Position numbers and translations under genes: made by a program
Shown: positions 17,443 to 27,358 of the stretch, in pieces
Layout: each line of letters opens with the position of its first letter
How positions within the stretch are numbered: position 1 is the first letter of the stretch
Notes under the pieces: generated by a model
Databases searched by the model: none
Seen by the model: the letters and a program-made list of their open reading frames with translations, nothing else
What the model was told of the DNA's origin: nothing
Source of the DNA: Massilicoli timonensis
GTDB lineage: Bacteria > Bacillota_I > Bacilli_A > Erysipelotrichales > Erysipelotrichaceae
DNA: 32,000 nucleotides
Direction: 5' to 3'
Assembly (NCBI RefSeq): GCF_900199515.1
Contig: NZ_LT963432.1
Coordinates: forward strand, 30,001 to 62,000

Positions 17443-17761
17443 TATTTTGTTTTTTTTTTATTCCCAGTAAAATCAAGCTGTGATTTTTCTTTCAGTTTGT
17501 TTTTATGTATCGTCATGGAAATCAGATGGTACATTTTTATAGGATAAAAGAAATAAGGGCAATCGATTTTTGCCTACATATCGGTAAAAATAGTATTCAA
17601 GCAATCACACTAATCTTAAATTTAGGTGCAAAAAAGACAATCCATCATAAAGCTAACGCCGCATAAGTAAGTAATCGCTCTAAACGCACTTTATGAGCAA
17701 TAGCAAGGTCTCAAAGAAACATTTATCGAAATATCGTATTCCATATTTTGATTTTAGTAAA

Positions 17762-20804: not shown

Positions 20805-20886
20805 CTCTAAACTTCCGTGTGGGTGTGGGTACGCCCTAAACTTATGTGTGGTATTTTTCAGATACCTCTAACATTTTGTGTGGGTG
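20805..20886. repeat. Three direct copies of the IS end motif (left end)
   Basis: CTCTAAACTTCCGTGTGGGTG (20805-20825), CCCTAAACTTATGTGTGGTAT (20834-20854) and CTCTAACATTTTGTGTGGGTG (20866-20886). Confidence 0.7.
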
Positions 20887-20895
20887 AATAAAAAA

Positions 20896-20942
20896 CCTTC
20901 GTGATATGATTTCTTTGTCGAGAAGAAATTACACGAAGGAGG
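20896..20942 (+). promoter_or_regulatory. Compound hairpin occluding the transposase RBS
   Basis: CCTTCGTG (20896-20903) pairs with CACGAAGG (20932-20939). The inner stem is ATTTCTT-tgtcgag-AAGAAAT. The right arm overlaps the SD sequence GAAGGAGG (20935-20942), 10 nt before the ATG at 20953. Confidence 0.5.
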
Positions 20943-20952
20943 TATTTAACCT

Positions 20953-22290
20953 ATGAATGATTTTATCACAGATTTATTTAATATTGATAGAAAAAAGATT
21001 AAAAAAATGAATGTTGTTACTAGTAAGGATAAAACTGAGTTTCATATCGTCTTAAACCACGATGGTGATTTATTTTGTCCTTTTTGTTATGGTGTCGTTC
21101 ATGCCAATGGCTATTCGAAACCTAAAATAATCAATCACCCTAAACTAACAGATAGAAAAGCGGTAATTATCTTTTATAACCATCGTTATCAATGCAACGA
21201 ATGCTTGCGTACTTTCTCTGGGAAAAATCCTTTCACTTTTTCTAACTTTAGAAATTCTTATCTTTCTTTTGAAAACATTATGAAGCAGCTTTCTAATTTG
21301 AATTATTCATATAAAATGGTAGCTGAGCTGAACCATATCTCTCCTACCCAAGTACAAAGATATTTTGATAGCTTCGTAAACATTCCTAGAATCACTCTAC
21401 CTGAATCTATAGGGATTGATGAGATTCATTCAAAAATGGCAAAACGAAAAGATTCTGCTTATTTATGTGTGATGGTGGATAATAAGAAACGTTCTCTTTT
21501 TGAAATACTTCCATCTCGTTCTAAAGCAGAATTAAAACGTTATTTTGAAAAGATTCCTCAAATAGAACGGAACAACGTAAAATATGTAACCATTGATATG
21601 TGGTTTCCTTATAAAGAAGTAGCGAATAAGTATTTCCCTAACTGCATTGTAGCTGTTGATCCATTTCATGTTGTCGAACATTTAATGACTAGTTTCCGCC
21701 GTATACGTCTTAATATCATGTATCAGGTAGAATATGGCAGTGATAGTTACTATTTACTCAAAACATGGAAAGACTTAATTGAAAAGAATGTTTTTCTCGA
21801 TAATGAACCAGTCTACAATAATCGCTTCAAAATGAAACTAAACAAAAGACAGCTACTTGATTTAATTCTTGAGATTAGTGAAACATTGGCTTTAGGATAT
21901 CACCTAAAAGAGATGTATTTAACCTTTAATAAAAATGCAACGGAAGAAAATTGTGAGGAATGGTTCAATTCTATTTTAGAAGCTTTTAAAAAATCAGGAA
22001 TATCAGAGTTCCATGATTTTATTCAAACACTTGAAAACTGGAAACCAGAAATTCTTAATTCATTCAAAAGACCTTTTGATGAGCACAAACTAAGCAATGC
22101 ACTCTGTGAAAATATCAATGGGCAAATTAGAACATATTTATCTGTATCAAAAGGAGTATCTAATTTTATCCGTTTTAGAAAAAGATGTATTTTTGCTTTA
22201 AATCCAAAGGTTTTCTATTCAATTACAAATCAATTAAAATCTAATAAAGTTCAAGGCAAAAGAAGAGGCAAATATAATAAAAACAAATAA
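20953..22290 (+). CDS. ISL3-family transposase (zf-ISL3 + DDE_Tnp_ISL3)
   Basis: 445 aa. N-terminal zinc finger CPFCYG...CNEC. DDE region with GIDEIHSK..., VTIDMWFPY and VAVDPFHVVEHL, all typical of ISL3 transposases. Confidence 0.85.
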   Translation: MNDFITDLFNIDRKKIKKMNVVTSKDKTEFHIVLNHDGDLFCPFCYGVVHANGYSKPKIINHPKLTDRKAVIIFYNHRYQCNECLRTFSGKNPFTFSNFRNSYLSFENIMKQLSNLNYSYKMVAELNHISPTQVQRYFDSFVNIPRITLPESIGIDEIHSKMAKRKDSAYLCVMVDNKKRSLFEILPSRSKAELKRYFEKIPQIERNNVKYVTIDMWFPYKEVANKYFPNCIVAVDPFHVVEHLMTSFRRIRLNIMYQVEYGSDSYYLLKTWKDLIEKNVFLDNEPVYNNRFKMKLNKRQLLDLILEISETLALGYHLKEMYLTFNKNATEENCEEWFNSILEAFKKSGISEFHDFIQTLENWKPEILNSFKRPFDEHKLSNALCENINGQIRTYLSVSKGVSNFIRFRKRCIFALNPKVFYSITNQLKSNKVQGKRRGKYNKNK

Positions 22291-22318
22291 ATAAATGAAT
22301 CGTACTTCTCGACACATA

Positions 22319-22365
22319 AAAAGGTGGTTCATTAGTACTTACTTGTACTAAATATACCACCTTTT
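22319..22365 (+). terminator. Compound hairpin after the transposase gene (terminator-like)
   Basis: AAAAGGTGGT (22319-22328) pairs with ACCACCTTTT (22356-22365). The inner stem is TTAGTAC-ttactt-GTACTAA. Confidence 0.45.
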
Positions 22366-22376
22366 ATCTCATCTTA

Positions 22377-22429
22377 AACCACTCGAAAGTTTAGAGTTCA
22401 TTTTCTCAAAACCACTCGAAAGTTTAGAT
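22377..22429. repeat. Two copies of the IS end motif (right end, inverted relative to the left copies)
   Basis: AACCACTCGAAAGTTTAGAG (22377-22396) and AACCACTCGAAAGTTTAGAT (22410-22429). Their reverse complement, CTCTAAACTTTCGAGTGGTT, matches the left-end repeats. Confidence 0.7.
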
Positions 22430-22449: not shown

Positions 22450-22474
22450 GCCGCTTTTCACAGCGGCTTTTTTT
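22450..22474. terminator. Terminator hairpin in the convergent rrf2 / ABC-operon intergenic region
   Basis: GCCGCT-tttcac-AGCGGC followed by TTTTTTT on the + strand, with an A-run on the other side. It abuts the stop codon of the minus-strand permease gene. Confidence 0.55.
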
Positions 22475-24152
22475 ACAGTTTTGCAAATAAACGGTTTGTC
22501 TGCTTCTTTACCAACTGATACAAAAGCGGTGATGTGACAAGCAGGATCACCAACAATGCGATCGCCAGTTCAAGCACATGCTCCAGTCCTACCCGGATCC
22601 CTAAAAAGATGATGATGCCGCCAAACGCAAATCCGCTCAGCATCATGATCGCAGCGGTAAAATTCTGTTTCACAGCGCTGGCTTCCTGTTCCCATACTAA
22701 TTTCGGATGCAGCAGATCGACCAATACGCCGAGGAAATTGCCATATACATCGCCTAAGATAAACGTAAGCAATAATAGTGCGGAAGCAAGCAGCGGCATT
22801 TGTAAACCGATGATCGCCGGGATTACCAGCAATAACCCGCCGGCAAGTGAGATCACGATACCGGAAGTCGCTTTCGCCGCAACCTGTGTCATATAAGAAA
22901 GCGGAATATACTTCATAAAATCATAATGTGCGCCCTCTCGTGAAATCGCTGTCGCAGAGATCATATTCGTATTGCTCATAAAGAAACCAAGCCCGATGCC
23001 GCCTAAGATCACAAAGGCATAGCTTTCATTTGGATAGCGGGTAAAAGCAAGATCAAGGAAATAGCGCAAATCGGCTAATGTTTCCATAAAATTCATATCC
23101 TCGCCGCCGATCAGCACCGGGACGAAAAATAACACCGGCATCAGAAAACTGATCAGCACACAGTTTTGAAAATAGATCGGATTGCGGATCAACAGGCGCA
23201 GTTCTTTTTTCAAATACGAAAAGAACGCCGGTTTTCTCACCGTTTGTTTTCGCATGGAAGCACGGCTCAATTTCTTGCCGGTGCTCATGCTGTCAGATAC
23301 GTTTACCGCCGATTTCAAATAAATGCGATTGCCCAGTACCAAAAATAAAGCCATGAGCACAACGATGACCACTACAAACAGACCTAGCTGTACAAAGTCT
23401 TGATCAGCCAACGCATTCGCCATCATCGCAACCGTCGGAAAGATCGCACTGAAAACATTGACCAAAGGACTGTCGCCCGTTAATAAGCCGAGGATGAAAT
23501 TCGTATCGCTCATTAACGTATTCATCGAAGAATACTGAAAATAATATACGACCACCAGCGTTGCCAATAAACCAAGCGTACCGAAGATCATATTGAAGCG
23601 ATCTTTATTTTTCGCAAACGGCAGAAAGCGCATCATCAGGATGACGATGAGCGAAGCGTAAAGCAGCGGCACGATCGGCAATAACAGAAAACAGATCGTA
23701 CCGATCACCACGAAGCCGATAGAAGCGCCTAATTCCTGCACATAAGCGACATACATCGGCAGGATCACCAGCAATGAGAATAAATATTCAAATGCCAGCA
23801 TGACCGAAAACTTGCTTGCCAAAATATGATGCGGCTTGATCGGCAGATATAATAAAGTCTGAATATCCTTTGAGAAATAATAAATGCCCGGCACCATAAA
23901 CATCGCAAAGATAAAGGTCACAAAAGAACTTAAATAAAAGCCCAGCCCCAAACCGGCACTTTGCTGATGCAGCAGTGTTACCGTTTCAAAAATATAGACA
24001 AACAGATCATACAAGACATATAGCATCGGCAAAAAGCAGACCGCAAGCAACGCATAGAGCGCGATCGTCGAAAGCTTTTTGCTTTTCGCATCGTTAAAGG
24101 ACTGTCCGCTCGTCTTGATCAGCGTTTTCGTTAACACCCAGAACTCACGCAT
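22473..24152 (-). CDS. Large polytopic ABC-transporter permease (internally duplicated, EcsB/'putative ABC exporter'-like), module 2
   Basis: 559 aa and almost entirely hydrophobic, with about 12 or more predicted TM segments. A basic cytoplasmic linker (SRASMRKQTVRKPAFFSYLKKELRLLIRNP) restarts an ABC-2-like N-terminus mid-protein. The ATG overlaps the upstream ATPase stop by 8 nt. Confidence 0.6.
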   Translation of the reverse strand: MREFWVLTKTLIKTSGQSFNDAKSKKLSTIALYALLAVCFLPMLYVLYDLFVYIFETVTLLHQQSAGLGLGFYLSSFVTFIFAMFMVPGIYYFSKDIQTLLYLPIKPHHILASKFSVMLAFEYLFSLLVILPMYVAYVQELGASIGFVVIGTICFLLLPIVPLLYASLIVILMMRFLPFAKNKDRFNMIFGTLGLLATLVVVYYFQYSSMNTLMSDTNFILGLLTGDSPLVNVFSAIFPTVAMMANALADQDFVQLGLFVVVIVVLMALFLVLGNRIYLKSAVNVSDSMSTGKKLSRASMRKQTVRKPAFFSYLKKELRLLIRNPIYFQNCVLISFLMPVLFFVPVLIGGEDMNFMETLADLRYFLDLAFTRYPNESYAFVILGGIGLGFFMSNTNMISATAISREGAHYDFMKYIPLSYMTQVAAKATSGIVISLAGGLLLVIPAIIGLQMPLLASALLLLTFILGDVYGNFLGVLVDLLHPKLVWEQEASAVKQNFTAAIMMLSGFAFGGIIIFLGIRVGLEHVLELAIALLVILLVTSPLLYQLVKKQTNRLFAKL

Positions 24153-26465: not shown

Positions 26466-27147
26466 CTACACATGCAAAAAACACTTCTTTCAGCGACTGC
26501 TCTTTTAATTCCGTACGCTTCAACGTCTGCACGATCTTGCCGTGATCCATGATATACGCATCATCCCATATTTCATCAATGACATCGATGATATGCGTTG
26601 AGATCAGGATACTGACACCCTGTTCCTTCAATTTCACAAACAACCGCAGCGTATCTTCAATGCTGGCAGGATCCAAACCCACCATCGGCTCATCTACCAG
26701 CAATGCCTGCGGCGAAATGATCAGCGCCAGCATCATACTGAGCTTTTGCTTCATCCCCTTGCTCAATTCCTTTGCCATCTTATCCTTTTTATCACTGAGA
26801 TCGAATAGCTCCAAATACTGTACCATCTTTTCTTCATAATGTTCCACGCGATAGGCATTCGCGATAAAGCGGACATGTTCCGCAACCGTCAAGATATCGT
26901 AGAGCACCGGCGCTTCCGGTATATAGCCGAACAGCTTCTTCGCCGCGACACTGTGATTATCATGCCCGCAGATCTTGATTTCTCCTTCATACTTCAATAA
27001 AGCCGCAATGCTTTTGATCGTGGTCGATTTCCCGGCGCCGTTTGGACCAAGCAAAACCGTAATTTCACCCGGCTTGGCGCATAGATTCACATCATCGACC
27101 GCTTTCAGTTTCCCATACGTTTTCGTTAAATGATGCACTTCGATCAT
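26440..27147 (-). CDS. ABC transporter ATP-binding protein (ABC-2/DrrA-like), module 1
   Basis: 235 aa. Walker A GPNGAGKSTT, variant signature LSKGMKQKL, Walker B ALLVDEP, H-loop STHI. RBS GGAAGGAGG. Confidence 0.85.
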   Translation of the reverse strand: MIEVHHLTKTYGKLKAVDDVNLCAKPGEITVLLGPNGAGKSTTIKSIAALLKYEGEIKICGHDNHSVAAKKLFGYIPEAPVLYDILTVAEHVRFIANAYRVEHYEEKMVQYLELFDLSDKKDKMAKELSKGMKQKLSMMLALIISPQALLVDEPMVGLDPASIEDTLRLFVKLKEQGVSILISTHIIDVIDEIWDDAYIMDHGKIVQTLKRTELKEQSLKEVFFACVGEHHESAA

Positions 27148-27173
27148 ATGATCGCCTCCTTCCTTTTGGTTTC

Positions 27174-27202
27174 AGTATATCCTACTATACTGTACACTGC
27201 AA
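27174..27202 (-). promoter_or_regulatory. Candidate proximal promoter (P2) of the ABC operon
   Basis: Minus strand reads TTGCAG (27202-27197), a 17-nt spacer, then TATACT (27179-27174), ~27 nt upstream of the ATG. Confidence 0.45.
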
Positions 27203-27225
27203 GTACAATTCTGTAAGATAGTAAT

Positions 27226-27256
27226 ATTTTACCCCCCCCCCCCCATTTTTTGTCAA
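27226..27256 (-). promoter_or_regulatory. Candidate distal promoter (P1) whose spacer is a G13 homopolymer
   Basis: Minus strand reads TTGACA (27256-27251), AAAAAT, G13, then TAAAAT (27231-27226). The spacer is 19 nt in this sequence. Confidence 0.4.
27232..27244. repeat. Homopolymeric C13 (+) / G13 (-) tract
   Basis: Counted directly: 9 C at 27232-27240 plus 4 C at 27241-27244. It is the only long G:C homopolymer I noticed in the window. Confidence 0.95.
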
Positions 27257-27317: not shown

Positions 27318-27346
27318 AAAAAATAAGAGCATCCTGAAATGCTCCT
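27318..27346 (-). terminator. Rho-independent terminator of the aminopeptidase gene
   Basis: Minus strand reads AGGAGCAT-ttcagg-ATGCTCTT (one G-U pair) followed by ATTTTTT. Confidence 0.65.
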
Positions 27347-27358
27347 ATTCTTCATGCT

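Follow-up and report, generated by a model that had tools for sequence, protein, structure and literature searches.

A candidate variable promoter with a poly-G spacer upstream of an ABC exporter-like operon in the gut bacterium Massilicoli timonensis

Repeat-tract phase variation has been studied almost wholly in pathogens, such as those of Neisseria, Haemophilus, Campylobacter, Helicobacter, Treponema and Mycoplasma. Massilicoli timonensis is a human-gut member of the Erysipelotrichaceae (PMC6796691), and the 32,000-nt stretch of its DNA that was analysed here as a whole (the window) contains a run of 13 G upstream of a cluster of ABC transporter genes. Is this run the length-variable spacer of a promoter, and if so, what would its length do to the genes downstream?

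Direct reading of the minus strand gives TTGACA-AAAAAT-G13-TAAAAT at 27256-27226, in which G accounts for 13 of the 19 spacer nucleotides (Table 1). This bears out an earlier note on this DNA, which had described the run as 13 nt of the 19-nt spacer of a consensus −35/−10 pair with a perfect −35 and a good −10; its arithmetic is right as well, the loss of 2 G (G11) giving a spacer of 17 nt. The run is the sole run of G or C longer than five in the 32,000 bases of the window. Runs of at least 9 G were expected 0.06 times according to dinucleotide-preserving shuffles, whereas five overlapping matches were observed, all of them inside the tract. The G13 run is not due to chance and is a gross outlier for the sequence of the window. 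In our own intergenic promoter scan, which allowed spacers of 15–24 nt, TTGACA-19-TAAAAT (P1) was the top hexamer pair of the intergenic region, with 11 of 12 consensus positions. The standard consensus scan, which allows only for 16–18 nt between the hexamers, reported neither P1 nor a second pair closer to the gene (P2), P1 being absent because its spacer is 19 nt long. The P1 hexamers lie 79 nt upstream of the ATG, past the terminator of the upstream gene.

Table 1. Coordinates of the promoter region and of the ABC genes in the window.
Feature	Position	Strand	Basis
Intrinsic terminator of M29 aminopeptidase gene	27318..27353	-	16-bp stem and U run
P1 −35 hexamer TTGACA	27251..27256	-	6/6 consensus
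P1 spacer, fixed stretch AAAAAT	27245..27250	-	invariant across intact loci
Poly-G tract, G13 in the window copy	27232..27244	-	direct reading
P1 −10 hexamer TAAAAT	27226..27231	-	5/6 consensus
Imperfect dyad ATCTTACAGAATTGTAC-N7-GTACAGTATAGTAGGAT	27179..27219	-	direct reading
P2, weak tract-independent promoter-like pair TTGCAG-17-TATACT	27174..27202	-	8/12 consensus
Ribosome-binding site GGAGG, 7 nt ahead of the ATG at 27147	27155..27159	-	direct reading
ABC ATPase 1, 235 aa	26440..27147	-	PF00005, 6.9e-27
PF16962 'putative ABC exporter' membrane protein, 527 aa	24882..26465	-	PF16962, 1.5e-84
ABC ATPase 2, 241 aa	24145..24870	-	PF00005
559-aa membrane protein, last gene of the cluster	22473..24152	-	weak PF16949, 4.7e-05, below Pfam cutoff

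The four-gene ABC operon that had been proposed downstream of the tract is real and tightly packed, as judged by open reading frames and domain matches: the genes are close-packed or overlapping, and all four reading frames are intact in the window. ATPase 1, the M29 aminopeptidase and a pyruvate kinase, all encoded in the window, are identical to proteins that NCBI assigns to M. timonensis, ATPase 1 under the name ABC transporter ATP-binding protein. The PF16962 protein has 527 aa when read from a GTG, and gene callers use an ATG start that gives 524 aa. No relatives of the two membrane proteins were found in the PDB, and similarity between the 559-aa protein and the PF16962 protein was not detectable. 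A role of the operon in anti-phage defence was rejected, as PADLOC matched neither membrane protein and hit the ATPases merely through their generic P-loop. In the metagenome samples spanning them, ATPase 1 (235 aa), the permease (524 aa) and ATPase 2 (241 aa) were called at full length; what had looked like a truncated permease in locus L012 was actually a scaffold gap of 100 N.

An ISL3-family insertion sequence is located at 20805-22428, ~45 nt past the final stop codon of the ABC cluster, with its transposase at 20953-22290 on the plus strand. Its terminal inverted repeats are CTCTAAACTTCCGTGTGG / CCACTCGAAAGTTTAGAG, its G+C content is ~31% compared with ~46% in the surroundings, and an Rrf2 regulator and NifS-like cysteine desulfurase pair lies beyond it. 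The element may have displaced the terminator of the operon. Elsewhere in the window, a T10 run at 17450-17459 (A10 on the minus strand) is found ~20 nt upstream of a good promoter, TTGACT-16-TATAAT, which serves an 850-aa gene at 17348-14796; this run resembles a common A-tract or an element of the UP type.

Upstream of the tract and on the same strand, the M29 aminopeptidase gene (28591-27359) is followed by an intrinsic terminator with a fold of −17.4 kcal/mol (z = −4.1), which none of 200 shuffles equalled. The terminator ends ~60 nt ahead of the P1 −35. Since it is strong, the operon needs a promoter of its own within the next ~160 nt, and the only alternative to P1 in this interval is P2. 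The earlier note had placed this second pair at 27202-27174, where it is indeed present, though with 8 of 12 consensus positions only. P2 retains the most conserved positions (TTG, TAnnnT) at a spacing of 17 nt and is invariant across all Massilicoli loci; with such a second promoter-like pair in place, the caveat that the tract may modulate expression rather than gate it holds. The imperfect dyad (17+7+17 nt, with 12 of 17 arm positions complementary) spans P2 from its −35 through its −10. The dyad does not reach significance as an RNA hairpin (leader fold, z = −1.2). It may be a repressor operator; no regulator gene is adjacent to it.

Promoters of the sigma-70/sigma-A type work best at a spacing of 17 nt, tolerate 16–18 nt and lose most of their activity beyond this range. 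On balance, we lean towards the view that the poly-G run is hypermutable and, taking up the greater part of the P1 spacer, makes this distal promoter of the sigma-A type a spacing-dependent variable promoter of the ABC exporter-like operon. Slipped-strand mispairing would alter the length of the tract and with it the spacing of P1, which would be active at G10–G12 (16–18 nt), weak at the G13 of the window copy (19 nt) and essentially silent at G14 or more. P2 would provide a basal level of expression independent of the tract, and the tract would serve as a volume control that is heritable, stochastic and reversible, not as an absolute on/off gate. At any length, the G just before TAAAAT would match the G in the TGn motif of extended −10 promoters, with possible −35-independent activity. 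We infer that P1 would work, that tract length would alter expression, and that switching would be frequent, reversible and adaptive.

Tract length was compared across contigs carrying the window's exact ATPase and aminopeptidase, to which the commoner alleles of both were added. This gave Massilicoli loci from 29 independent samples, the window included, with a bias towards long contigs. The tract is intact in 17 samples, with G12 in three, G13 in three, G14 in four, G15 in three, G16 in three and G18 in one. It is long enough for slippage (~8–9 nt or more) both in the window, at G13, and in the other samples, at G12–G18, and in the cross-strain comparison that the earlier note had set it is anything but invariant. 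Among the 136 possible pairs of the 17 intact samples, 17 pairs have no difference in the 1,260-nt flanks; the tract differs in 15 of these 17, by 1–3 nt, in short-read calls that are imprecise and may individually be wrong by at least one base. The tract varies within both flank haplotype groups. An interrupting point mutation within the G run was seen in no sample, the hexamers are perfect or near-perfect throughout, and TTGACA is unchanged in each Massilicoli locus that extends that far. Two further assemblies lack the first T of TAAAAT (L070 reads G11, L072 reads G14), probably owing to a miscall of the base after the G run. A JGI metagenome scan with the conserved flanks and any spacer of 0–30 nt yielded no match.

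The tract is, by far, either the fastest-changing or the most error-prone site of the locus. We consider it improbable that the tract is real and of fixed length, its variation arising from short-read sequencing or assembly error. Such error would agree with the contig break or N gap found exactly at the tract in 10 of the 29 samples, with the loss of the T after the run in two assemblies, and with the garbled broken ends, which are typical of reads losing phase past a long G run; the breaks themselves fit either heterogeneity or read errors. However, the consensus range of 12–18 exceeds errors of about one base, and error alone would hardly account for consensus calls that span six bases. The breaking or gapped loci are L008-L010, L013, L014, L074-L077, L080 and L084 (window equivalent 27232-27244), and where contigs are broken, their ends show long spurious A/G runs and a corrupted version of the flanks. 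For two NCBI assemblies, accessions of the flanking proteins are 64 apart (MCQ5122322/MCQ5122258) and 100 apart (HIR15682/HIR15582), a spacing which suggests that these assemblies also break at the tract. An artefact of two-colour chemistry was rejected as an origin of the poly-G, as the tract is internal, with unique flanks, in 17 intact assemblies from different samples. The earlier caution that homopolymer lengths are error-prone is well founded in view of the error-riddled contig ends at the tract. In practical terms, the tract breaks or gaps about one third of the short-read assemblies examined, and lengths taken from such assemblies are not trustworthy.

The alleles of the 17 intact samples are centred at 14–15 G, beyond the optimum. 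Their spacers are 18–24 nt long, with 14 of the 17 at 19–24 nt; a spacing of 17 ± 1 nt is found in the three samples with G12 (18 nt), and a clean 17-nt spacer, i.e. G11 with an intact −10, in none of the 17. That alleles are mostly longer than optimal suggests that expression would be mostly off or low, and this off-heavy distribution fits a locus that is usually off and a promoter disabled by runaway expansion equally well. The second possibility amounts to non-adaptive decay, in which the tract is a real mutational hotspot with no selected function, P1 has already been disabled by expansion, and the operon is driven by P2 or hardly expressed. We regard this as rather unlikely. It would be in keeping with the predominance of 19–24 nt spacers, with the lack of any of exactly 17 nt, with a P2 that is invariant and correctly spaced, and with the proximity of the ISL3 element to the last gene, which hints at relaxed constraint. 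On the other hand, a long tract free of selection should degrade, whereas here the hexamers are kept and the run is uninterrupted. G12 alleles do occur, the four reading frames are intact in the window with ATPase 1, the permease and ATPase 2 full-length in spanning samples, and three other lineages have polymorphic G runs at the corresponding position of the promoter, with lengths that straddle 17 nt.

These other lineages come from a wider comparison of the operon. The databases hold no sister species for promoter footprinting, the next ATPase being 74% identical, and a scan of species genomes with the permease alone gave no relative. An alignment-based scan of species-representative genomes recovered 53 homologous operons, none of them from Massilicoli timonensis; they belong to Erysipelotrichales and Blautia and have permease identities of 30–40%. 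A G run of at least six in the promoter region is present in two of these 53 operons, both from Massilimicrobiota, and is not a family trait. Massilimicrobiota was followed up with contigs for four ATPase alleles, which revealed a common layout in three Coprobacillaceae lineages. The distal promoter is invariant, with nTGACA-17-TATAAT in both Massilimicrobiota-type lineages and AGTGAC-17-TATAAT in Allocoprobacillus. It is followed by CTTGCCCC-TTGCAA-(7 to 11 nt)-Gn-TATATAAT, and the ribosome-binding site and ATG follow ~20 nt past TATATAAT. The tandem promoters are located ~40–130 nt upstream of the ATPase start (loci L098-L107, L088-L097 and L108-L117).

In Allocoprobacillus halotolerans the element reads TTGCAA-AAATGCT-Gn-TATATAAT. 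With identical flanks, the run is G7 in the finished genome (CP101620.1), G9 four times, G11 four times and G12 once, giving spacers to TATAAT of 16, 18, 20 and 21 nt. The Massilimicrobiota timonensis group has G6–G12 and spacers to TATAAT of 17–21 nt, with some A-to-G changes extending the run, and the L020 group has G6–G10 (mode G7) and spacers of 18–21 nt. In Massilimicrobiota timonensis the whole interval from TTGCAA to TATAAT is hypervariable and the remaining intergenic sequence is conserved. Point changes extend the run in some of its alleles, for example from CCGGAGGGGGG to CCGGGGGGGGGGG, and others differ by an inserted TG or by a changed −10 (TGTATAAT, TGTAAT); the variant loci are L088, L089, L091, L092, L095 and L097.

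Short-read consensus is usually reliable at the shorter G-run lengths of Allocoprobacillus and Massilimicrobiota. Polymorphism of the promoter G run is therefore real in this operon family, and the range of G6–G12 between identical flanks, where a finished genome has G7 as against G9 and G11 elsewhere, also speaks against error as the source of the variation in Massilicoli. The gene upstream of the operon differs by lineage (M29 peptidase, PTS IIB, GH32 or a transposase), so that the promoter module moves together with the operon. How the promoters correspond between genera is ambiguous in a MAFFT alignment of the intergenic regions, which pairs P2 of the window with the Massilimicrobiota G-run promoter and P1 with the invariant distal promoter. 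By layout (TTGnCA-AAAAT..Gn..TAnAAT), P1 would be the better counterpart of the Coprobacillaceae G-run promoter. The Massilicoli ATPase is nearer to relatives without a G run, such as that of [Eubacterium] hominis (72%). It is possible, if doubtful, that the length-variable spacer G run represents a conserved or repeatedly evolved contingency promoter, in gut commensal Firmicutes, of the exporter family that combines an ABC ATPase with a PF16962 membrane protein; the lineages concerned number four or more within the Erysipelotrichales (Massilicoli, Allocoprobacillus and the two of Massilimicrobiota type), and the genomic neighbourhoods of their operons differ. For the window itself, the earlier proposal of a promoter spacer that varies through slipped strands gains support from the polymorphic tract, the terminator upstream and the similar runs in other genera, which together are consistent with it.

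The tract might act otherwise than by spacing, either as a protein-binding site or an unusual DNA structure (G-quadruplex, A-like helix) that insulates the operon against upstream transcription, or as an RNA element of the leader. We give this little credence for the window. In the Coprobacillaceae the G run is downstream of the invariant nTGACA-17-TATAAT and would be transcribed beside a conserved CCCC, with which it would form a leader hairpin that is predicted to strengthen from −13.8 kcal/mol at G7 to −22.0 kcal/mol at G12; this hairpin could be a length-dependent leader element. A three-layer quadruplex is possible in principle for a run of at least 15 G. The window, by contrast, has no pairing C run: the G run is unpaired and the predicted fold energy is equal at G11, G13 and G16, so that an RNA-structure role of the window tract was rejected. 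A search of the whole window against Rfam returned no family. In addition, with a strong terminator ahead of it and the P1 −10 after it, the tract is probably little transcribed, and such a role leaves the consensus hexamers that flank the tract unexplained.

Two other types of promoter were considered and rejected. A sigma-B-like −10 (GGGTAA/GGGTAT) has no GTTT-type −35 at a suitable distance, and sigma-B would not be expected in this clade. A MerR-type promoter with an over-long spacer (19–20 bp) would not fit a spacer that lacks a dyad. Nor do the 10 largest open reading frames of the 19–31 kb part of the window include a regulator of the MerR family, the sole transcription regulator found there being of the Rrf2 family.

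A spacing-dependent variable promoter, the reading that we favour, has several known counterparts. In the vlp promoters of Mycoplasma hyorhinis, a poly-A homopolymer in the −35/−10 spacer is an on/off switch, and the Mollicutes are phylogenetic neighbours of the Erysipelotrichia; unlike the tract described here, that homopolymer is poly-A and not poly-G, and its targets are surface lipoproteins. In the fim promoters of Bordetella pertussis, the length of a poly-C run of ~12–15 sets the expression level by spacing the site of the activator BvgA from the −10, whereas neither an activator site nor a nearby regulator gene was identified at the Massilicoli tract. The tract of porA in Neisseria meningitidis comprises ~9–11 G. 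Its alleles centre on the optimum, in contrast to the Massilicoli tract, whose lengths of 12–18 are mostly above the optimum. In addition, porA encodes an outer-membrane porin of a Gram-negative pathogen, while the Massilicoli tract precedes an ABC exporter and has a second promoter-like pair downstream of it.

The resemblance to porA is nevertheless close: there, too, a G homopolymer occupies the spacer of a sigma-70-type promoter, and slippage sets both spacing and transcription (PMC7864442). Poly-G between −35 and −10 with an optimum of 17 nt is experimentally established for Treponema pallidum tp0126 as well as for N. meningitidis porA (PMC7864442). In tp0126, as at P1, poly-G separates the −35 from the −10, and transcription is best at 17 nt (PMC7864442). 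The poly-G tracts of the tpr genes vary in length within and between isolates (7–11 in tprL), with longer tracts silencing the gene (PMC7864442). T. pallidum differs in being a spirochaete with surface antigens as targets, and the effects of length were shown there by reporters and fragment-length analysis.

The mechanism itself is textbook, known from porA and tp0126. What is new is the clade, the target, an uncharacterised ABC exporter family, and the fact that polymorphic G runs recur in the promoters of this family in several genera; we found no paper linking the Erysipelotrichaceae to homopolymer phase variation. If the tract tunes the operon, obligate gut commensals of this clade would share the bet-hedging device otherwise known from pathogens, and the unstudied PF16962 exporter family, which has no named function or structure, would be a trait under fluctuating selection. 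Variants with short and long tracts would then offer a simple handle on the function of the exporter. If a contingency promoter is true of all four lineages, this would point to strong fluctuating selection on the exporter, for example where antimicrobial peptides, bile or phage impose a trade-off.
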